Assembly: GCF_018977255.1 (NCBI RefSeq)
Contig: NW_024704743.1
Location: forward strand, 27,468,001-27,532,000
Source: Callorhinchus milii
Taxonomy: Eukaryota
Reading direction: 5' to 3'
DNA: 64,000 nt
In this document: positions 13,011-53,228 of the stretch, in pieces
Numbering within the stretch: position 1 is the stretch's first letter
Layout: each line of letters opens with the position of its first letter
Notes under the pieces: generated by a model
Told to the model about the DNA's origin: nothing
The model's database searches: none
Seen by the model: only the letters and a program-made list of their open reading frames with translations
Translations under genes and position numbers: made by a program

Positions 13011-15869
13011 TTTTTCATACTCTAGCACCTTATTAACTGGGTGATCTTCTCCGACTCCCACTTTTCTGCTTGCCCCTTCCACTGTAACTCAAACCTCCTT
13101 AGTCCCTCTTATATCATGATGAGCGGTGTCTGACAACATCACTTTGAAGTGCTCTGAGATGTTATCCATGAAGGGCACTGCATAAATGCAAGCTGTTGTT
13201 GTGATTTCACATACCCACGCTTTCTATCTATGAATATATCTGAATTTACCAATGAATGGTGTAACAGGTAAGAACTGAAATGTTCCCTGACAGTGGTGCA
13301 TAATTACATCTCGTTGATATACTATCCAAAAAGAGTCTAACTGAGGCTCTGACTGAAATACAGTCTCCTGTAATGACATTTAGGAAATGTAACACTCAGT
13401 GCAAATGATGAAAGCACATCTTAGTAACTATTTATGATATTTTCTAATGCTCAGGGCTCTGCAAACTAAATAGACTATAGTATAAATTGTGCGAAAGTAT
13501 GTTGCTATTTATGAAATACTTTTGACACATTTGCAAATTCCAAAACCCTAGAGTTCTAGACATAGGCCTAAATATTATTTGAGTTGTGATTTTTCTAATA
13601 CTCAACAACGGGGAAATAATTCCTGTTTCTCAATGATTCTTTTTACAACAAAATAGTCTTTAGATTTTCAAGTTTGCAGGTGGAATACTTTGCTGCGAAA
13701 GGGCTTCTCTTGTAGTGCCAATCTCTGTGATGTACTTGTTGTGTTCTCAACAGGGATTTTGTTGAATGACAAAGATGGCTTCTGATCAGTCTATAAAAGG
13801 ATAAACTCTACGGAAATCAGTGCCAGACAGTGAACATGCTCCGAGAGGATTCCCCTGCCTAAATGTCAACAGAGTGTGCCTGTTTCTATTCCATTTAAAT
13901 GGCTTTCTTTCTTGGCTGAAGAGCTCCTCAACTAGGAATCACTTCCTGTGAAATGGAAGGGTAGGGGGTAGAGACATTTCGAAAATTGATTTGCAGTATC
14001 TAGAGAGGAAGTGAAGTGAGACAAAATGTTGGCACTCCAGCATGCTGTGCCATGGATCAGAAATACATACGGATCAGTATGTCCTAGTCATAGGATGCTA
14101 GACCTTGGGAATCTTAATTTATGTTATTGAGGGATGGTACTAAGACTAGTGGTCAAGTGCTTCAACATATTACGAATTGGAAACTGAAGATTTGGTCATG
14201 CTGGGTTACTCCTACTTGCTCCATGTTGGATGCTATTTAAAGATTGATGGACACCTGTAAGCTGGCTTCAGAAAAATATATCGTAATTTACTTCCGGTGG
14301 TGACCTGGACCACCACAGAGAGCTGACTCGATTCTGCCATTCCATTGCAAAACATGTCACCTTGGAGCCAGTTCAGCTCTAGTTTCCTCTCCAGCAAGGA
14401 GATAGTCACTTGACATCTGACAAGCTGGAACTGAGCCCTCATTTGTGGATGGCAGGTACAGAAGCTCCCTTATGTGCTCTATGGTAGGCAACACAACTCA
14501 GCATGAAATGTGTGAGAGCATTTCTGCCATTTTACTTCCCCCCTCTGGATGACTAATTTGGGCTGGCTGTGGGGGAGCGTGCCCTACCTATATCATGATC
14601 AGAACTCCCTCCCTCTACTCCTCCAACTCCTACCCTCTGTCGGTCTTCAAGTGTTGCCTTAACATCTATGCCTGTGTTCACCTCCCTTCCGCCTGCTTGG
14701 CACCCATCCCCATCACTGTAAAAGGCTCTGAGATGTTTTCCATGAAAGATGCTATATAAATGCAAGAGGTAATACACTGGTGAAGTAATTGGAGTGTTTA
14801 TCAATCCATGACTTTTTACACATATTACTAAGAAATTAGGCAAAATAACAATCTAAGATGATTTTTAAATCATTCTGGAAATGGTTCAATCAGCACAATT
14901 TCTCTTTCATTTGTTTTCATTTAATAAATTAAATTTCATTTAATAAAATTCTGCTTCAAGATAAAACATTTTGTTTGAAGGTTCCATCATTTGAATTACA
15001 ATACCCTGCAAATGTTGTTTCTATATTTTTCCTCATACATTTCAAGCTTTTTTGAACTGAAACAATGGATGGATGTTCTTAAATGGATGCAGTCCTAGCT
15101 GGGTATTGGAATAAATATTCATAATGAAGAAAACTGAATGTCACTCCCGGAAGTTTGCAATTGAAGGGTCATGAATTTGCATTTATTACTTCATTAGCTT
15201 TAATGGATGATCATTGAATTCATACATTTTTCATAGGCTTTTAAAAACAGTTCTTAATTATTTTGCTGCACTTGCTCAAGACGGTTCACGGATGCTTACT
15301 AAGTTTTATAGCATTTAAGAACTTTCCTTGTACATAAATTTTGCCAAAGTGGTGCTTTAGTCATGGGATGTCCACAAAACTCAAAGGGGGTTTCTGTTGT
15401 GAATGGCAAATAGGAGAATTGTGAACTTTGATAGATTTTCCTCAAGAATTTGCTGCTAGCACTCATACATTCTTCATAGTCCATTTAAGTGGAGATTTTA
15501 TGACCTTCATAAATGTTATACATATATGTAGCCTCATACGTGGCAAGGATTTCAGGAAAACTTACAACAGAAAGTTATTTGGCTCATCTTTCTTTCTCTA
15601 GATCAGTGGATCAATTTCAAGGTCCTCACCCTCATAAATCAATCCTAATGATGTTAGCACCTCTCTATCTCTCTCATCTCGTCCTACTCCATTACTCTGC
15701 TCACCCTTTTTCGAGTAATGCAACCCATTGATCCCACTTCATTTCTCAAATAATCTTCCTGGCTTTGTGCTGGGCTTGGTTGTAAGGTGCCTTTGCTGCA
15801 GTTTTAGCTTGCTCCGTGGTTGGAATTTCTAGGACTCCAAACAAAATGTTTGTATGGGCCTTCACCAGA

Positions 15870-18245: not shown

Positions 18246-18624
18246 ACCAGTATGGAGTAAAGCTGAACGCAGTACGGAGTAAAGCTGAATGCAGTACTCC
18301 CGATAGGGTCTGAGCAAGGTTTTAATACAGTTAAAGCATCATTTCCTCTCCTTTATATGCTAACCACTTGAGATAAAGGCCATCATCCCATTAGCCTTTT
18401 TGATAACTTTCTCACCTGTGAGCTTGTTTTCAGTGATTTGTTTATGTGGACACCCAAATCCCTTTGCTCTTCCACAGTTCTTAGTTTCTCACCATTTGGA
18501 AAATATTCTGTTTTGCTATTTTTTGATCTATAGCAGATGACCTCACACTTCCACACATTGAATTTTATCTGTCGCAGTCTTCCTCTTAATCATTTTTAAT
18601 CACTTAATCTGGCTAAATCCCTTT

Positions 18625-20087
18625 GATATCACCAATGATATCCTGACCATCTGTAACCAGGGCTCCCTCTGCCTCCTCGTCCTCCTCGACCTATCGGCAG
18701 CATTCGATACGGTCGACCACGCTATCCTACTCCACCGCTTGTCCTCCCACCTCAACCTTCAAGGCACTGTCCTTGAGTGGTTTAGGTCATACCTTTCTCA
18801 CCGTCTTCACTTTGTCTCCACAAATGGCTTCTCCTCCACCCCCCGTACTGTCTCATGTGGTGTCCCTCAGGGCTCTGTCCTCGGTCCCCTCCTCTTCACC
18901 CTCTACATGCTCCCCCTTGGTGACATCATCCGCAGACATGGAGTTAACTTCCACATGTATGCGGATGACACCCAACTCTACCTTTCCTCCTCTACTCTCA
19001 ACTCCACGACCACCGATGTCCTGACAGCCTGCCTGTCCGACATCGAGTCCTGGATGAGAGACAACTTTCTTCAGCTCAACGTGCGAAAAACAGAGGCCCT
19101 CCTGATTGGCTCGCGTCAGCGCCTCCGCACCTCAGGCGCCGACACCATCAGCATCCAAGGCTGCACTCTCCACCTCTCAAAGCCAGTCAGGAACCTCGGC
19201 GTTTTGTTCGACCCTGAGCTGTCCCTTCTCCCTCACATCCGCACCACAACTGGCACCGCCTTCCATCACCTCCGGAACATTGCCAGACTACGGCACTACC
19301 TCACCCCTCACGCTGCTGAAACCCTGGTTCACGCCTTTGTCACCTCAAGGCTGGACTATGGGAACTCTCTCCTCGCCGGCCTTCCCGCCACCTCCCTCCA
19401 CAAGCTGCAGGTCATTCAGAACTCTGCAGCTCGTGTACTGTCCCGCACCAGGCTTCGCGACCACATCACTCCCACCCTCGCTCGCCTCCACTGGCTCCCC
19501 ATCCCCCAGAGGATTGATTTCAAGATCCTCATCCTCACCTATAAGGCCATCCACGGCCTTGCTCCCTCCTACCTCTCCAACCTACTATCCCCCTACCTAC
19601 CTGCCCATACCCTCCGTTCCTCCGGCTCCGGTCTGCTCCACGTCCCCCGCCCCAACCGCCCTACCATCGGTGGTCGGGCCTTCAGCCTCTCAGCCCCCAG
19701 GCTCTGGAACTCCATCCCCCAGTGCCTTCGCCGCCTCCTCCTTCAAGGCCGGTCTCAAAACCTTTCTCTTTGACCGAGCCTTCAGCTCCCCTCTCGACTC
19801 TCTTCCCCCTCCTCGCTCCCTCCCTTCCCTCCCCTCACTCTGATCATTTCCCCCCTCCTCGCTCCCTCCCTTCCCTCCCCTCACCCTGACCATTTCCCCC
19901 CTCCTCGATCCCTCCCTTCCCTCCCCTCACCCTGACCATTTCCCCCCTCCTCGCTCCCTCCCTTCCCTCCCCTCACCCTGACCATTTCCCCCCTGCTCGG
20001 GTCCTGACCCAACTGTGCAGCGCCTTGGGACGTCCTCCTGACATGAAAGGCGCTTTATAAATGGAATCTTGTTGTTGTTGTTGTTGT
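18625..20087 (+). mobile_element. Young 5'-truncated L2 LINE (RT C-terminal region, 3'UTR, (TTG)n tail)
   Basis: Open frame from 18625 with [52 protein letters not shown] and FKILIL motifs; frameshift near 19730 then [10 protein letters not shown]; tail gggacgtcctcctgacatgaaaggcgctttataaatggaatc(ttg)n. Many CpGs retained. Confidence 0.95.
19805..19993 (+). repeat. 46-bp C-rich tandem repeat (4 units) in the L2 3'UTR
   Basis: Unit ccccctcctcgctccctcccttccctcccctcaccctgaccatttc; the tga(c/t)cattt marker recurs at 19841, 19887, 19933 and 19979. Confidence 0.95.
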
Positions 20088-33720: not shown

Positions 33721-36694
33721 CTATGTAATTTTATCTTATGAGAATCCAGCATTACCCCAAGCATACCCTGGAGTTTCCATGCCTTGGTTCTTTCTCCAGA
33801 TTACGTCAGCAGGGTGCGTCCCTCTGGGGAGAGTGTGCATTCCTTTGAACACATGGAACTTTCCAAGTGTAGGTGGAGTTACAAGGAATTCTCAGTTTGG
33901 TTTGAATACTCTTAAGCATGCCTGTTAAATTAAATGTTAAAGAACCCTTGATATTGTTTGAAAAGAAAAGGGAGTTTCTCCCATTGTCCAAGCCAAGAAT
34001 CCCCTTCATCAAGTTTGATCACTTACCTCATGGCTGTTTGTGGGACATTATTGTGTACAAATTGGCTATTGCATTTTGCCTACAAATTACCCAGTCACTA
34101 CACTACAATAAATGTTATGAAGCTCTTTCAGACTACCCACTGGGGTAAAGGTGCTAAACTAAATGCAAGCCTCATTATTATTATGAATGGCAATTGCAAG
34201 AACTGAAAACCAATATGAAACAAACGAGTTTAACATTTCATTCAGTATCATCTCTCTCAGGAATACTCAAACATCCAGATATTTCACATTAATATAGAGG
34301 ATTGCTTCAAGCAAAAATCCGTTGTCATATTTATGGCTTTATTTTTCCAATTTAATCAAGATTATCATAAGCAGGAAGAGTGCTTTAATATTACATCTCA
34401 AATCAAAATATTTTCTTTCCTTATTTTCCTTTTGGCAAATATGCAGATGAGTCTTGGTTGCAGTTTTCACATGCAAGCTACAAAAAATGAAAAAGGAAGG
34501 AAGATAAGAGAGGTCTTGCGATGTTGCACCACAGTCAATGAAACTCGATGAGTTGCAGATAGGAAGCATAGTCATGGGGGGGGTAAGCTAATCCACTGTG
34601 GCCCCTGGTCACCTAACTTTGCTGATCAGTTAAAGTTGCCTCACAGTTTTTCTGCAAATAGCTTACATGGCTGCAGCAAGCAAAATTGCTGGTATTCGAT
34701 ATAAACATTGCCTCTAACCATAATCCAGAAAATCAGCTAAAGCATTCCCAACCTCTGAGCAAATTTTGTCACAGGCCCGAGTTGAAATGGCTGGCTCTTG
34801 TGAGCTATCCACTTTGTGGCCTGGAGCAAACACTCTTTCGGAGCTGTGACAGGAAAGAAGCCTGACAGTGTGGCCTTGCAACTTGAACTGACAGCCATCT
34901 GTTGGTTAGGCAGACGTTGTTACTGCCTCTGTGCCTCAGAGCCCCCGGCAACAATATTTTAATCAAATAGATGATTAAATAAAAAATAAATGAATAAAAT
35001 AAACAATATTCTAATCAAATAGATACAATTTGGCCTTTTATAATGTTTCATGTAACATCATCCGCTCATGTTTTGTCAATGAATAAAAGTTCATTTCATT
35101 ATTTTTTATTTCATTAAATGTCTGAATTTAGATAGCTCAAATGTCTTAATTGCATTGAGTACGTTGAAAAATATTTAAAGTTAGAGATCTTAAGCTTTGA
35201 GTTTGAAAACAACAATAAAATAGCACTTATAACGATTTTAAAGACCAATAAGAGAAATGCATTCTGTACCACACACAGGCTTACATCAAAATGGGAAATA
35301 ATTGTTGGTGCTTTATTTATAATCCATCATTGTGTCAATTAATTAAAACCTGATAAAGATTTAAGAGTTCTTTGTGCATGTACCCAGTTCACTCCATCAT
35401 AAGGTACAGTGAATGATACAAGGGCCTGGCTTATGATGTTGTAATGTGTAATAAGTCAGTTCTCTTTCTAGATTTCGATGTACTGAAAAATGTTACGGTA
35501 GCCAAAACAATTAATTGCTCTGTCTTCTGTGCCGATAGAAAGGAGAAGGGATTTGATTTAATCTTGTTTCCGTGCCACTGAAAATGAAGGAAGTGCAAAG
35601 GGCATAACAGATTTAGCAAGAAGCAGCGCTGAAGGGTGAAGGAATCCTCTATCAGCCTTGGACCTTATTAATGGCCTAGATTGCCTCTTCCACCAGCAAT
35701 AATGAACAGATACAGCTCTATAAGAGGCCATGACCTGCGAATGGAATACAAGGGCAGGGCTATAAGATGTGTTAAGGACTGATTTTATTGAAATACAAGA
35801 CAATCTGTTTGAACCCGAGTATTATTTTGAGTTATTGGAATTCATCTTCCCTTTTTCAAATACATTTACAAAAACGTTCTTTTGGAAGGTCAGCAAATGC
35901 AGGGTAAATAACAATAATACTTGGATTTCATATAGTGCCTTATCACATATTCGAAACATCTCAAAGTGCTTCACAGAATATACTAGAAAGTGTTGTGACT
36001 ATATTTTGTGGGCATCATGCAAAAAGAGTCCTATCTATACAGAGAAAGGATGTGTAAATATAAATGGACAGAGGGAGCAAAGGGACAAGACAGAGGCAGA
36101 AAGAAAGACAGACAGACAGATAAGCTTGTGTTCTCAATGCATGCATGAGGCAATCAATACCAATGATTAACCTCTCTCAGCTGAGAAGAGCAGAGAAGAG
36201 ATTACATCAGGCTGATGCAAAAAAACACTTACAGTTTCAGATCCCTTCTGACTATCACATTAGGCCTAAAGCTGCTTCAGTTATATCCACTAATGTTGCT
36301 CCAATTTAATTTGTTACATTTTGTAATATACAGATGGTGCACAGTGCTCATTTTTAAAAAGAAATTTACACTCAAATTAGATTCTGCAGAGCTCTATTCC
36401 GATTGTGAGTGCAACCCGCTCGAAACTCGTCAAATCTGTAGCCGGGAACATATTTTGTTCCAGAGCCCGGTTCTTTACCATTAATAGCGAGCTGATTTTG
36501 TGGCCTGTCCTATAAAAAGTTTGCTGTGGTGAAAGATCAGTGCTGAATGAGGTTCGCTGAGCACCTCACACCACGGTCCAGAAGATAATTTCGTAAATTT
36601 CTTTGGTCAGCCGGGTGTCTGCCACATGTGGAATCCCAACACAGAGTAACCAAATCAGACTGCGAGGGATACAATGCATACTCTCTCCCTGGTT

Positions 36695-36912
36695 ATCTAA
36701 TTCTGGAGAATATCAAGTGCAGGTTAGAAAGAGCCAAGGCTTGGGGACTCCAGAAAATGCATTGGGGGTAGTGCTGAAATTTAACCAACTAAAACCGAAT
36801 AACTCACCATTGAGAGAACTGTCGGCCAAGCTTCCTACTGCTGGTTTAGCTGGGTTTACCAATTAGGGCCTAGGCTTGTAAGGTTAGCAGGAACTGAGTG
36901 GGAAGAATCCCT
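36695..36912 (+). repeat. Unclassified old interspersed repeat (second copy ~60628-61003)
   Basis: gagaat..tgcag..aagagc.aaggc..tgct..a.ttta.cca.ctaaaa and terminal ctgagtgggaagaatc shared between both copies. Confidence 0.7.
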
Positions 36913-37503
36913 GCTCCTAACCACAAATGTTTTGGCTCAGCCTCAGCTCATGTGGGAATGTGGCGGATTCGCATTAATGTTTACTGTATTGCCTTTTCAC
37001 GTATTGTATTCACAACCTCAGTATTTGTTGTTGTTACACGTATATGCTTATACTGCAGGGAATAGCATTAGAAGATTGAGTAATAAAGGGTGTATGGAGA
37101 GGCGATGGATCAGTCTGTATTCATCGTGATTTTGATTTCAGAAAATGAATATGAATTGTAAAAGGCCAGGAAATTGCATCTTAAGTGAGGTATTCATCTC
37201 AAGATTATAGAGGTAATAAACATGGCAAAATGAAAGAATAGTTGAATAGATGAATAAAGGAAAACTAAGCAGAGAGTCAGCAAAATGGACAACGTTGCAG
37301 AACCAAAGGTAGAGATTGGGCTGGAGAGTCTACTCTTTTTTCTAGTTTAGTTTTAATCACAAATCTAGCAGCTCCTTATAAAAATCATTCCTCCACTCGA
37401 TGCTGCGTATGAATGAAAAGTCATGAGCATTTTCAGGAACTAAAACCTTTGTCTTGTCTAGCTTACCAACTTCCACTCAAATTTAAAGATGGTTCTATAT
37501 CTT

Positions 37504-37968
37504 ATAATAATAATAATCCTTGTATTTGATATAGCGCTTTTCATGTCTTCTAGCGTCCCAAAGCGCTTCACAGAATATACTGTAAAGTGAATTGACTGTA
37601 TATTTGTGGACGAACGCGGCAGCCAATTGCGCACAGCAATGTCCCACAAACAGTCATGGATTGAAAATGACCAATTTATTATTGTTTTGTTTTTTTGGAG
37701 GGATTATTATTAGGCGTGTGGAGTAAGGAAACTTGCGAATGGGATCAGTAACTCAGTAATATTCTGTGAAGCGCTTTGGGACGTCTAGAAAACGTGAAAA
37801 GTGCTATATCAAATGCAAGGATTATTATTAATAATCCTTGCATTTGATATAGCGCCTTATTGCATCTTCGAGAGCATACTATAAAGTGAATTGACTGTAT
37901 TTTTGTGGGTGAAACCTGGCAGTCAATTGCGCACAAACAGCCGTGGATTGAGTGACCAAATTATTTTT
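37504..37968. mobile_element. Rearranged cluster of three SINE pieces (minus, plus, minus)
   Basis: Minus copy 37504-37736, plus 3' end 37755-37829 and minus copy 37829-37968 joined tail to tail. Confidence 0.88.
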
Positions 37969-37973
37969 TTTAT

Positions 37974-38082
37974 TCATGTGGCTATCAATTTCTGCTAGTC
38001 CCTGTTATTTTTCCTCCCGCTCCCTACAGCACCTACACCCACTGTTATCTTCCCTTCTGCTTGACCTAGATGCAGCTCCACC
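37974..38082 (+). repeat. Direct repeat copy A flanking the S1-like unit
   Basis: tcatgtggctatcaatttctgctagtccctgttat...acacccactgtta...cttgacctagatgcagctccacc aligns by eye (roughly 85% identity) to 39197-39309. Confidence 0.9.
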
Positions 38083-38551
38083 CCTCATCCCTGCCTCAAA
38101 CACATCAATCCGAACACCAGTGACGCTGCCAGATCTTCTTTTGGTCAGTCGGGTGGCTGACACATGAGAGGTCTCAGTGTCTTATCGAAGATGTATCTTT
38201 GTGGAACGCAGGCTTGAGGCAGAGTTACTGATCCCATTCGCAATGCAATTGTAACTTGAAATCCCTGGGTTTCAGCCTTTCAACAACCGGATCATAATTC
38301 TGGCTACATTGCACGTATACTGCTGATAAACCTTTCAGTCACGTGAGACAACTCTGGCCAGTGCAGAATATCCAATCCGGTCACCCTTACCAAGTGCATT
38401 ATCTAAATCGTCCAGGTTATCCTCTGCCTAGTGTAAGCATCTACCTGGCTGCCCAGGCTTTCTATCTTGTACTAACTACGGATTTTGTTTTTTTTAAGAA
38501 AAACTTGACAAAACATAATATGTCTTTTGCCCCAAGTCTCAAGTACTTGTT

Positions 38552-38557
38552 TTTATT
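38552..38557 (-). terminator. Polyadenylation signal of the S1-like gene
   Basis: AATAAA on the minus strand about 45 bp downstream of the TGA stop; no genomic poly(A) tail follows. Confidence 0.6.
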
Positions 38558-38602
38558 CAATTTCAACAGATACTCTAAAATTCTTACGTAGCACTGCGGC
38601 AT

Positions 38603-38873
38603 TCAGACAGGCACCCTCGGGCCATTTGATGCTGTTTCAAGGATTTGTTAAGACGTCTGATGGTTTTTGCTTTCAAATTGATATCCACGTCTTCCCAAGC
38701 CCTAGAGCAGCATTTAAGGTGCACAATCTTCATTAACCTTCTCTTGTAGGTTGAATGTCGGGGTCGACGGCTAATCCTCCTTCGTCGCCTTCCCTGGTAT
38801 TTGGTTTTCCTCATCCTTCTTCCACATCGTTTGCAGGGTGGCTGTGTCTTGGACGATATCTTGATTTGGTCAT
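38603..38873 (-). pseudogene. Spermatid-specific basic nuclear protein S1-like (chondrichthyan transition/intermediate sperm protein) pseudogene
   Basis: ATG at 38873 gives MTKSRYRPRHSHP; after a 1-nt loss at ~38837 the frame reads CKRCGRRMRKTKYQGRRRRRISRRPRHSTYKRRLMKIVHLKCCSRAWEDVDINLKAKTIRRLNKSLKQHQM; after a second 1-nt loss at ~38622 it reads PRVPV-TGA (38605-38603). Collinear end to end with dogfish S1 as recalled (TKSRYR...GRRMRKT...RRISRRPRHTTYRRR..KIVHLKRRSR...NLKVK..RRLNESLKQH...RVPV). No intron. Confidence 0.85.
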
Positions 38874-38957
38874 GATTGTTTTGACTTTGACAACCAGTTG
38901 AGTTCTTATCACATGCATTCAAGATTTCTTAATGAACCTTTGCCCCTGTTGAGGTAC

Positions 38958-39003
38958 CTTTTTATTGAATGGGACCCCGATTGTTGATGACCTAGCGTAT
39001 TGG
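38958..39003 (-). promoter_or_regulatory. Putative core promoter remnants of the S1-like gene
   Basis: Minus strand CCAAT (39003-38999) followed about 30 bp later by TATA-like CAATAAAAAG (38967-38958), 85-95 bp upstream of the ATG. Confidence 0.45.
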
Positions 39004-39196
39004 TATTGTTGATTAAATGTCTTAGCATAAGCAGGTAAGGCATTGACACCCTATTTGATATTGATTATGGTGTAAATTGACACTGCCTTATAAGGTATTA
39101 CTATGTCCCTCATCCCTCACCTTGTGTTCCCTTTGGACACTCAAATTGACTGTAATTATCCTGATATGGCTTTCAATCCATATATGGTCAAATTAA

Positions 39197-39309
39197 TCAT
39201 GTGGCTTATCAATTTTTGCTAGTCCCTGTTATGTTGTTTCCTCCTGCTCGCTACATCACCCACACCCACTGTTAGCTTCTTTTCCACTTGACTTAGATGC
39301 ATCTCTACC
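39197..39309 (+). repeat. Direct repeat copy B flanking the S1-like unit
   Basis: tcatgtggcttatcaatttttgctagtccctgttat...acacccactgttag...cttgacttagatgcatctctacc; same orientation as copy A, about 1.22 kb away. Confidence 0.9.
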
Positions 39310-42244
39310 AGAGGAGGTGGGATCGAGTCCTTAATGTATGCAGGTGACAACCATCTTGTCTAACTCTACAATCTATGGGAGGTTTATTGTACAGCACTTA
39401 ATCTCTATAGGTCTCTAATAAACCCAATTATGTAATGATGAAGGGAAACTGGTTATAATCACTTTTTTTAATTGGTTCATAATCACATTGAATTATGACT
39501 ATTATAATTAGAGTTACATTATAACTATCAAGTGGAAAGTATGCTCCACCAGGAAATATGCCACTAGTATAATGACTGAAAGGTTAGAGGAAACAAACAT
39601 TAATGCAACCACAGTAAATAATATTTGGGAAGTAACCACTACTGATTGTTGCTAACAGGAAGGATGAATGAACTACTACATTACATTGTTATATAAATCT
39701 TAGGTTCTAAGTTATGCTAACATTCTACAACAAATATTAAGTGTGAAATCTGTGGGGTTTATACTTGCTTAAACTATAACTATCACTGGCGATAATTATC
39801 ACAAGGTAATAATTTGTGACTGTTGTACAATAACATTAATATTCCATCAAATTGAACTAATAATAATAATACCTGATTTGATATAACACTTTTCAAATTG
39901 TGAGGATGACTTAAAGCAGTTCAAAGGATGTACAGTAATGTAATGACTATTTTGTTGGTGATACGGCAGCAAATTTGTGCACAGCAACATTATTGAGGAC
40001 CCGGGAGACTCATCTCCAACCTCTGAAAAATGGTTTCTCTCACCTCTTTGATCTCAGTTCACTCAGCTCCACCTTGTTTAAAAAGGCAATTTTGTTTTGC
40101 TAACTTACAGCAGGCAGAGAGAAAACCTTGACTGGATTAACCGCAGATCCTCAAGTTGAAAGGTTGTTGGTATGGTCAAGGTCTCCACAAACTGATTAAT
40201 TTCCTAACTGATCCACTTCCTTCTATAAATAGGGCTACCTGCTTCTTTTGGAAACAATGGCATTTCCACTCATTGCTGGCAATAGAATTCACCTGTGGTG
40301 ATTTTTTCATTGCTCACGTGCTTATGTACTTGACTGTGACGGTTTCTGCTGCTTGATGGTGGTACAGTATGTCTTCATCTGTTACCAGCAGTAAATGGAG
40401 TTGCCGTAGATTAGCATACAAAGAAGTGCTACATTTTACAGTTGTTACTTGTGAAATGTTTTGATATGTTTTGACATGATGAAGCACTATATCAAATGCA
40501 AAGATTATTATTATATATTATATATATTATATATATTGTTTGAACACAGCTATGAGTCTTGCGCGGGAGAGGGAAATCATCATAAATAATAATAAATGAT
40601 AGCAATAATACAGTAATAATAAGCTTTTTGTTTGATATAGCGCTTTCCACATCAGGAGGTCATCTCAAAGCACTTCGCAAGATTTACTCTGAAGTGTAGT
40701 AACTGTGTATTTCACATGCGAACATGACAGCCAATTTGAGCACAGCAATGTCCACAAACAGCCATGAAGTGATTTTTTTCCCCAAGCAAATTAGTTTTGA
40801 ACGATGTAATATATATATTTTTTTGCCAACTTGCAAAGCAAATTGATGGATGATTTCTGCAGTACAACTGTCACTGCTAAATCTATTTAAAACACATGAA
40901 ACATTGCAAGGAAGCTGAATAAAAATGAATAGTATGTAGATTTGATTGCTGATATTTATGAAACATTGCCTGTGTCAGCCCTGAGAGAGAGAGATGATGT
41001 GAAGAGAAACTCAGTCCTAATTATAATCATCATTGAGCTGAGTGCTCACTTCCCATTATGTCTGTCTTCAGCTGCACAGAGCTATTGGCTCCAAAAGGAA
41101 ATTCACAGACACTATTTACTGAAGGCCAGCGAGCTTATAAATCAGCTTGTATCTTCCTTTATAGGTCTCTTTAGATTCCTCCTCTGCTGACACATCCTTC
41201 AGCCATCAAAAAAAAATTCGCATTTTTATACCCCCTTAAACCCATAAAAACATGCCAACATAACTACTGTCAAGTGTGGTGACTGCGTTTGCAGGAAAAC
41301 AAAGCAGACACTTAATAAGAATGCTAATAATAATAATTTATAATAATCCATGCATTTGGTATATCAACTTTCAAGCCGGAGGACGTCTCTACTTGCTCTC
41401 AGGATATGTTATTAAGACCACAATCTCTTGACCCATTGTGCTAGCAACTGAACCAACTGAACAAAATATAATTTGTGGCTCACTGGGCAGACATTCTAAC
41501 TCTCCAAAGTCCCTCTCAATGGTTGCATCCAGAAGATATCTGCACTGCATATTGGATTGCAATTTAGTGGGACACTGGTTTAACTTTGATTTTTTGTTGT
41601 TGAGTTAAATCAGTAGCCATCAAATCCCATCATTTGTCAGTTAGTATCTATGTTAACTTGGATCATGCAAAGAAAAGAATCAAATTGCCATGTGAGTATT
41701 TGGTTCCCACCATCTCTGTGTTTCATCTGAACCAGGGGGTTCACAGTGAAAGCTTGGAGCATGTCAAGTACTCTGAGACACTGTCTTGCATGAAGAGTGC
41801 TACAAAAGTACAAGTTGCTGTTGTTTTTTTCAAAACACGCAGTCACGTTTTGTATCTCTGCACCATCTTTTGCAGCAGTGCAAGTGTCTGCCTGCAGCCG
41901 AAATGTTACATGGGTGAAGAGAAGATGGGAAAATTGCTGAGGTACAAATTAAGAATAATTTGCTGTGCCACATACCAGTGTAGCTTTAAAAATGCAATTT
42001 GGGGGACCAGTCAAGCACAGTGACAAGTGGAATTCTGTTGTAAACAATCTCATTTTAATTATGAGGGTACCATCTATCATGCCTGAAATGTGTGTGTTTT
42101 TTTAAGTCTGGATTTTCTACGTTGTTTAGCATATTGTTGTTGTTTGACTTTCCAGTGTTTGCACCACTTTAACCCTTTGACAACTGCAGTTATATTTTTA
42201 GTGTAATGTTCAGTGTAATAATTATTACATCAAACACATTTTGA

Positions 42245-42985
42245 AATGCCACAGATTTCATCTCCATGTACCACCACCAATGTAGTTTTACTACATTCGC
42301 TGCTCACAATGTGGTCTCCTCTACATTGGGGAGACGAAAGGCAGATTGGGTGACCGATTTTCCGAACACCTCATTCTATTCGCAAGCACAACCCTGAGCT
42401 TCTGGTTTCTTGTCACTTCAACTCTCCCTCTCACTCGCACTCTGACCTCTCCATCCATGGTCTCCTACGCTGTTCCAATGAACCACAGCGCAAGCTCGAG
42501 GAACAGCAACTCATTTATCTGCTGGGGACCTTACAGCCCTCTGGCCTCAATGTTGATTTCAACAATTTCAGACCATAACAGTTCACCTTCCCTCTCCCCC
42601 TCTCCTGTGACCATTACCACATCTCTCTGGTCTACCTATTTTGTTGCGATTTCCCCCCCTTTGTTTTGCATTATTAACACCGCTATTCCTCTGTTTTCTT
42701 GCAATCCCCTCTTTGCCTCTTTGTTTTGCATCATTAACATCTCTTTAACCAATCATCCTCTGTGCTCTACCCCATTTTCTCCTTTGTTTTCCTTGTCCTG
42801 CCTCTCCCCTCTCTGTTAACCCTTAAAAGCCTCTCCTTCCTAACATGCCCCAGTTCTGACGAAGGGTCGTGGACCCGAAACGTTGACTCACTTTCCTTAA
42901 TCCATAGATGCTGCCTGACCTGCTGAGTGTTTCCAGTGACTTCTGTTTTGTTTCAGATGTGCAGCATCTGCAGTATTTTGCACTT
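42245..42985 (+). mobile_element. Penelope-like element 3' portion (GIY-YIG endonuclease C-terminus plus terminal repeat)
   Basis: Frameshifted translation YYIRCSQCGLLYIGETKGRLGDRFSEHL..IRKHNPELLVSCHFNSPSHSHSDLSIHGLLRCSNEPQRKLEEQQLIYLLGTLQPSGLNVDFNNFRP*; typical terminus gatgctgcctgacctgctgagt...cagcatctgcagtattttgc. Confidence 0.9.
42852..42888 (+). ncRNA. Minimal hammerhead ribozyme motif of the Penelope-like element
   Basis: agtt-CTGACGA-a-gggtc(gtg)gaccc-GAAA-cg-TT-gact: catalytic core, 5-bp stem II, palindromic AACGTT stem III, stem I agtt/gact. Confidence 0.7.
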
Positions 42986-52129: not shown

Positions 52130-53228
52130 AGCAACAACTACAAAATTACATTTGTAAAGCGCCTTTCACATTGGGAGGATGTCCCAAGACACTGAACAGT
52201 CGGGGATCAGGACCCGAGGGTGGAGGGGCAGGGTTGGGATGAGGGAGGCCAGAGAGAAAGGAGGGCAGACGAAGGCATGCTCAAAAAGCAACAACAACAA
52301 CAACAACAAGATTCCATTTATAGAGCGCCTTTCACATCAGGAGGACGTCCCAAGGCGCTGCACAGTTGGGTCATGACCCGAGCAGGGGGAAATGGTCAGG
52401 GTGAGGGAGGAAAGGGAGGGAGAGAGGAGGGGGGAAATGGTCAGGGTGAGGGGAGGGAAGGGAGGGAGCGAGGAGGAGGAAGAGAGTCGAGAGGGTCTTG
52501 AGTTGTGCCTTCAAGGAGGTAAGGGAGGGAGCAAGGCCAAGAGACTGTGGGGTGAAGTTCCAAAGGGTAGGGGCAGAAAGGCTGAAAGCCCGGCCACCGA
52601 TTGTAGGGTGGGTCAGGTGGGAGGCAAGGAGTAGGCCAGAGCATGCTGAACGGAAGGAGTAGTCAGGTTGATAGGGGGTCAGCAGGTCAGAGAGGTAGGA
52701 GGGGACAAGGCCATGGAGGCCTTGAAAGTGAGGATGAGGATTTTGAATTCTATTCTCTGAGAGAGGGGGAGCCTGGAGCCAGGCGAGTGTGGGGGTGATT
52801 GGGTAATGGAGCCTGGTTCGGGAGAGGACACGAGCTACAGAGTTCTGGATGATCTGCAGCTTGTGGAGGGAAGAGTTGGGGAGGCCGACAAGGAGGGAGT
52901 TTCCATTGTCAAGTTTTGAGTTGACGAATGTGTGTATGAGGGTTTTGGCGGCCTGAAGAGTGAGGCAGTGGCAGGGTCAGATAATGTTGTGGGGGTGGAG
53001 AAGGTAGAGCAGATCATGGCACAGATATGGAAGAGAGAGGACAGTTGAGAGTTGAACAAGACACCCAGTTTCCTGACTGGAATCGAGGGTGGAGGCAGAG
53101 AGATAGAGTTGGGTGTTATCCACGTATATGGGGATGTTGACTCCATGTGGGAGCATGTAAAAGTTGAAGAGGAGGGGACCAAGGACAGAGCCCTGAGGAA
53201 CACTGCACGTGAATGTGTGGGGGCTAGG
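52130..53228 (-). mobile_element. Older L2 with a young L2 3' end (52288-52496) nested in it
   Basis: [13 protein letters not shown] and [12 protein letters not shown] remnants; nested piece has an (aac)n tail and two units of the 46-bp repeat. Confidence 0.88.

Follow-up and report, generated by a model that had tools for sequence, protein, structure and literature searches.

A probable orphon-like S1 spermatid protein pseudogene between diverged direct repeats in Callorhinchus milii

Introduction

How did a solitary gene for a spermatid basic nuclear protein come to lie between two diverged direct repeats? The question is raised by positions 37974..39309 of a 64-kb window, by which we mean the whole stretch of 64,000 nucleotides of Callorhinchus milii DNA that was analysed. 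The S1 protein of dogfish transiently replaces histones in spermatids, and an earlier note on this locus proposed that the S1-like gene here is a piece of a tandem array, either eroded in place or displaced to this site, with a mobilised mini-LTR cassette as the weaker alternative.

Decay of the S1-like gene

The S1-like coding region is intronless and lies on the minus strand at 38584..38873, from an ATG at 38873 to a TAA at 38584. By homology and frame analysis, it is very probably a pseudogene of an S1-like spermatid basic nuclear protein. A profile search returned nine hits, consisting of eight S1-like proteins of C. milii (A0A4W3H8T8, I4A2, KFX7, IZV8, K3G7, IS42, K235, and HC88), all catalogued as “uncharacterized,” and SSS1_SCYCA (P13275) of Scyliorhinus canicula. 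The eight C. milii proteins look intact and are 60 to 80% mutually identical. The window copy is 55 to 71% identical to them (71% to A0A4W3H8T8, with an E value of 3.3e-24) and 62% identical to SSS1_SCYCA, and the homology to the S1 type covers the whole of the short basic protein. It shares with S1 and the C. milii proteins a colinear Arg/Lys-rich sequence of 87 to 96 amino acids and the blocks RKTR, RRPRH, KIVH, NLK, and SLKQH, while a longer C terminus is common to it and A0A4W3H8T8. Unlike its eight C. milii relatives, the window copy is absent among the catalogued proteins. No Pfam family matches P0001, one of the C. milii S1-like proteins.

In contrast to its relatives, the window copy is frameshifted. 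Codon 14 (38833-38835) lacks one base, which leaves a coding region of 290 nt, one base short of whole codons, and the first ATG leads to a product of only 20 residues. A second ATG at 38814 overlaps the premature stop and opens 76 codons to the stop typical of the family. Contigs of four public runs (X1 to X4) were aligned to the window at 80% likeness, and the statements about them made here refer to those listed, namely, 32 of 454 aligned pieces, 15 of 18 joints, and 24 of 218 loose ends. The contigs that derive from this locus support the break, in that they have no other letter or gap at codon 14; by the 31-letter bridging rule, X2 (record 14, whose shorter side has 32 letters) is the only clear pass, and X1, X3, and X4 (30 to 31 letters) are at or just under it. 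An extra base at codon 14 was found in one paralogous contig in three of the four runs.

When the window copy is read through the break with an X, it is changed at 13 of 60 conserved positions, compared with 1 to 11 in ten relatives, and it has lost 7 conserved basic residues, compared with 0 to 3. Its Arg content is 23%, against 26 to 36% in the relatives. CpG loss affects 4 of 15 coding sites, against a background of about 28% of T/A sites in such a context; this count used 28 of the 40 difference rows listed (238 in all), with nine single-paralogue rows at 38098-38125 and three own-locus allele rows set aside. In a tree of 11 proteins, in which one of eight inner branches is supported, the window copy clusters weakly (39/87) with P0001, P0002, and P0004. 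No RNA data set was listed as containing the locus, which counts neither for nor against its expression.

That the window copy is still a gene, with a 76-residue protein made from the second ATG, seems to us rather improbable. No stop interrupts the frame from 38814 before the one typical of the family, the AATAAA is intact, and the catalogued paralogue P0008 (70 aa), which is without the first 20 residues, starts at the methionine that matches the second one of the window copy; P0008 may itself be another broken S1-like copy. Weighing against a living gene are the retention of the first ATG, with its 20-residue product, the low Arg content, the largest loss of basic residues, and the longest end branch of the protein tree (0.34, with P0004 close at 0.32).

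Promoter region and 3' flank

The 5' leader and promoter region (38874..39196, minus strand) contains consensus matches to a putative TATA-like motif (AATAAAAA, 38966), a putative CCAAT box (39003), and a putative TATAA motif (39092), all on the minus strand, and the polyadenylation signal AATAAA is found 27 nt past the stop (38557-38552, minus strand). The promoter-like motifs and AATAAA described in the earlier note are thus present, whereas what it took for a coding sequence is frameshifted and decaying. A distal block at 39047-39196 is common to the paralogues, with 6 to 10 paralogous contigs at 39070-39176, and is a candidate spermatid regulatory element. This block is better conserved than 38921-39046; within it, 36 nt (39052-39087) are duplicated in tandem in one paralogue (3/4 runs).

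The 3' flank of the unit (38083..38551, minus strand) is colinear in at least one paralogue as far as the repeat on that side. No poly(A) tail follows AATAAA, the longest run of A downstream being 8 nt at 38495, 62 nt away. A short dispersed motif lies inside the flank at 38132-38166 and occurs also at 36602-36628; summed contig depth in the bin 38102-38164 is 217 to 342, compared with 43 to 56 on the repeat copy to its left and 7 to 9 in single-copy flank. Read on the minus strand, the copy at 36560-36700 resembles the decayed end of a LINE reverse-transcriptase sequence. The idea that the direct repeat is the end of this remnant was rejected, as the only match is one of 27 nt at 38140-38166, outside the repeat.

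Direct repeats around the gene

Copy A of the repeat (37974..38082) lies on the 3' side of the gene, with its left end adjoining a truncated SINE, and copy B (39197..39309) lies upstream of the promoter, with paralogue homology stopping at its outer end. The diverged direct repeats reported at these positions by the earlier note are real: the two copies are identical at 95 of 109 aligned positions, or 84% when the 4 gap columns are counted as well, their BLASTN match in a self-search of the 64-kb window has an E value of 1.3e-29, and their local alignment score is 148, where 300 shuffles gave no more than 43. No third copy with an E value under 0.2 was found by BLASTN across the window. The starts of A and B are 1223 bp apart and the whole span is 1336 bp, or 1.09 periods, in close agreement with the unit of about 1.22 kb and about 1.1 periods that had been estimated. 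The repeat has no support as a structured RNA or hairpin (z, -0.09 to 1.54).

The divergence of 16% between A and B is like that among the paralogues (18 to 19 differences per 110 to 135 nt). At all three of the listed sites where A departs from the paralogues, B has the paralogue letter (40 of 238 difference rows and 12 of 39 indel rows were listed in the contig comparison). Given a divergence equal to that of the paralogues and paralogue letters in B, there is no sign that A and B have been homogenised. Near-identical contigs tile the locus in run X1 (records 1, 2, 5, and 7, none with more than one other letter), and three of the four runs each have a contig that reads through the outer end of B into unique flank; together they rule out an assembly artefact.

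Paralogous contigs with the repeat

The repeat is found in paralogues on both sides of the gene. In the four runs, 7, 8, 7, and 9 paralogous contigs cover the coding region (38700) and 9, 7, 6, and 9 cover the distal promoter (39176); copy A (38009) is covered by 5, 5, 5, and 7, with 1 or 2 more on B at 39232, contig depth being no copy number in any of these cases. Since the counts for the repeat are about those for the coding region, they point, by what is a weak measure, nearer to one repeat per gene than to two. Judged from these contig sequences, the repeat has few copies, accompanies the S1 family, and is not a common dispersed element. The earlier note had staked its proposal on the repeat not being common, dispersed, and unlinked to S1; what we found is a repeat on 5 to 7 contigs, which S1 paralogues have on both sides of the gene.

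Among the listed joints, one that goes back 1223 nt, from 39200 to 37978, is present in all four runs. In X4, record 25 (431 nt) covers 39064-39200 and then 37978-38086, with 18 to 19 other letters per piece. Another listed joint, from 39140 to 37976, is present in three of the four runs, and the two joints together indicate paralogues with the repeat ahead of the promoter. On the other side of the gene, the joints 38422-38517 and 38102-38202 are present in all four runs, again among those listed; in X4 both have a depth of 7.41, which is the depth of record 27 (839 nt), a contig that covers the coding region. A weaker joint, 38008-38545, is present in three of the four runs and has 22 to 31 nt on its shorter side. 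Record 27 and these three joints indicate paralogues with the gene, the 3' flank, and the repeat. A second paralogue spans 38043-38181 in two of the four runs.

Record 25, with its promoter-side repeat, continues 4 nt past the overlap between A and B into the inner flank of A and not into the outer flank of B, which is again a weak hint of one spacer per gene. Its last 94 nt do not align from 38087 on, where divergence is high: the single paralogue with an alignment there shows 9 differences in 28 nt. None of the listed records contains the 3' flank, the repeat, and the promoter in one piece, and the two types of junction are found in separate contigs. On the 3' side of the gene, paralogue homology continues for about 570 nt past AATAAA. 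On the 5' side, it extends for about 430 nt beyond the ATG and ends at 39309, with a summed depth of 7 to 10 in bins 39299 to 39676 in all four runs.

Left border and surroundings

The left border is formed by three truncated tRNA-derived SINE copies (37494..37973; minus, plus, and minus orientation). The tail-to-tail pair among them forms a perfect palindrome at 37803-37853, whose arms of 25 bp are separated by 1 nt; another palindrome, with 19-bp arms, lies near 1031, making two such sites in the window. A search of Rfam gave only subthreshold microRNA matches, over the inverted SINE pair. Copy A begins where the SINE is cut off, with a 7-nt microhomology (CAAATTA) to the unit. At 37733..37754, between the truncated 5' ends of two of the SINEs, the unit sequence 38222-38243 recurs in inverted orientation, with all 22 nt identical. 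A perfect match of this length is probably younger than a divergence of 16%, so a later break with templated repair is suggested, and from its sequence the 22-nt copy looks like a templated repair insertion made during a later rearrangement of the left border. Because SINE insertions later reshaped this border, the 110-bp length of the repeat is probably accidental, the product of two truncations.

The S1-like copy is alone in the 64 kb and has no neighbour within 25 to 38 kb; tblastn with eight of the nine proteins from the profile search finds a single locus in the window. Searches for remnants of an array to the left of the SINEs and to the right of B gave best local scores of 32 to 38, below shuffle maxima of 40 to 53. 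The window is rich in repeats, with 16,615 of 64,000 bases masked by self-BLAST, among them tRNA-Ala-headed SINEs and pieces of LINE reverse transcriptase (RVT_1, E = 2.5e-25). A search for a host gene or synteny among 401 nonrepeat frames of at least 42 aa, a size limit at which small exons could be missed, gave six weak Pfam matches and none at the cutoff. With no nonrepeat frame at the Pfam cutoff, the site appears to be intergenic or deep within an intron.

Proposed origin of the 1.09-period piece

The explanation that we favour, and hold to be reasonably probable, is that the locus is a 1.09-period piece of a head-to-tail S1 unit, copied at the DNA level and now isolated and decaying, that is, an orphon-like pseudogene. 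The unit of about 1.22 kb would consist of spacer, promoter, intronless gene, 3' flank, and spacer, and A and B would be the same stretch of spacer from two neighbouring units. The S1 family would have grown by unequal crossing-over, and the piece would either have been copied as DNA to a gene-poor site (an orphon) or have been left behind when its neighbours were deleted. The window copy would then have lost a base and basic residues, so that it would no longer make a full-length protein, and later SINE insertions and a repair event would have trimmed the left end to leave the 110-bp overlap. We lean somewhat toward displacement over erosion in place, because there is no remnant on either side and the right flank is sharply single copy. 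The earlier note's reading of the locus as about 1.1 periods of an S1 unit arising at the DNA level is thus borne out insofar as the repeat is tied to paralogues on both sides; the array itself is something that we infer.

Orphons are genes outside the main locus that derive from tandem repeats, as stated in the relevant passages of PMC3225859, which cite Childs et al. (1981) and give reintegration of circular DNA as one proposed route. Like histone and rDNA orphons, the window copy stands alone, derives at the DNA level from a multigene unit whose promoter and flanks it keeps, and has no poly(A), and it belongs to a multicopy family (eight C. milii proteins and 6 to 9 paralogous contigs on the coding region). 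Unlike them, it comes from a small family (about nine members) that is diverged and not a homogenised array, it contains 1.09 periods with ends that are 16% diverged and not one circularly permuted period, and both its source array and its displacement are inferred.

An array is not the only arrangement that would yield both types of junction, since blocks with two repeats each would do so as well. An ancestral S1 gene may have stood between two old low-copy repeats, with the whole block multiplied by segmental duplication; the window copy would then be a block of this kind, or what was left after repeats had recombined and collapsed. We consider this origin unlikely, although it accounts for the repeat on both sides in paralogues, for the exact coincidence of the end of homology with the outer limit of B, and for the alignment of record 25 stopping 4 nt past the repeat. 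It fits less well with repeat-bearing contigs that number about one per gene and not two, a weak measure, and with the left end of A, where the SINE truncation and the CAAATTA microhomology make the length of the repeat look accidental. A further candidate is a processed retrocopy, in which an S1 mRNA would have been inserted between repeats with no relation to it; the intronless gene and a window rich in LINE and SINE copies agree with this. The retrocopy is refuted by the promoter and 3' flank that are common to the paralogues, with homology far upstream of the ATG and past AATAAA, and there is neither a poly(A) tail nor a TSD, leaving it a negligible probability; the earlier note was right to set a processed pseudogene aside.

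The mini-LTR alternative raised by the earlier note would have a TRIM-like nonautonomous element capture the S1 gene with its promoter and spread by reverse transcription, with A and B as the LTRs; the cassette would have spread about nine S1 copies in the male germ line, in which the promoter of its cargo is active, and the window copy would be an old, decayed insertion that had lost its hallmarks. TG..CA repeat ends are a feature of TRIM and LTR elements, and here they are not in both copies, the TG at the outer end of B being absent from A. A TSD and a primer site define TRIM elements, according to the sections of PMC3532108 and PMC4717578 that deal with their structure. As the earlier note had remarked, neither is evident at the repeat ends: there is no TSD of 4 to 12 nt within 6 nt of both ends, the left flank having become a SINE junction later, and a motif search of the 15 nt inside each repeat, in both orientations and with no comparison to a tRNA set, gave no TGG. 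The alteration of the left border could have erased a TSD. The locus does resemble the TRIMs in the excerpted descriptions of PbTRIM (PMC3532108) and plant TRIMs (PMC4717578) in having short terminal direct repeats, a length of about 1.3 kb, and a host gene inside; its 1336 bp fall within the 1,172 to 1,449 bp given for gene-carrying plant TRIMs in that part of PMC4717578, which also reports tandemly arrayed TRIMs. The purine-rich run to which the earlier note drew attention exists beside copy A (38097-38076), but the unit has 6 such runs and the window 101 on this strand. The promoter-like and poly(A) motifs are internal and not in the repeat, there is no large population of solo repeats (5 to 7 contigs), and the paralogues are about 15 to 20% different, with no young, near-identical set among the eight proteins. 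Taken together, these observations make a mobilised cassette highly improbable.

Implications for the S1 family

If the tandem-unit reading is correct, this orphon-like pseudogene would be one more case of birth and death in a small multigene family. The more useful by-product may be the family expansion itself: a holocephalan with at least nine copies of a gene named only from a catshark protein, in a common 1.2-kb unit whose conserved upstream block offers itself as a candidate spermatid promoter. By analogy, the intact C. milii paralogues presumably do in spermatids what dogfish S1 does. LTR-like sequences are reported to lie around trout protamine genes (attributed to Jankowski et al., 1986), and a debate on “retroviral horizontal transmission” of fish protamines is said to have been taken up by Saperas et al. 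in 1994. Only if the mini-LTR reading were true would the locus bear on that debate; it would then show a TRIM carrying a gene in a vertebrate and would give a concrete example of the old idea that LTR elements moved genes for basic sperm proteins in fish. Among the titles listed by our literature searches we found none on the C. milii S1-like genes, and the excerpts of PMC3225859, PMC11607694, PMC3466250, PMC11083954, PMC3532108, and PMC4717578 that we consulted do not describe them; an annotation table of the genome paper could list the loci. Among metagenome contigs, 173 pattern matches yielded no confirmed case.

Other features of the window

The sole hint of a vertebrate-type exon in the window is a match to BTB_KLHL33 at 14236-14469 (minus strand; E = 0.005), which is below the cutoff and probably due to chance. 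A 177-codon stop-to-stop frame at 42286-42819, with no Pfam hit, starts with the GIY-YIG-like motif LLYIGETKGRL and is perhaps the remnant of a Penelope-type element. We also found a 403-codon open frame for a LINE reverse transcriptase at 18562-19773 (RVT_1, E = 2.5e-25); after it, at 19805-19999, lies a 46-bp tandem repeat that is found again in inverted orientation at 52385-52476.
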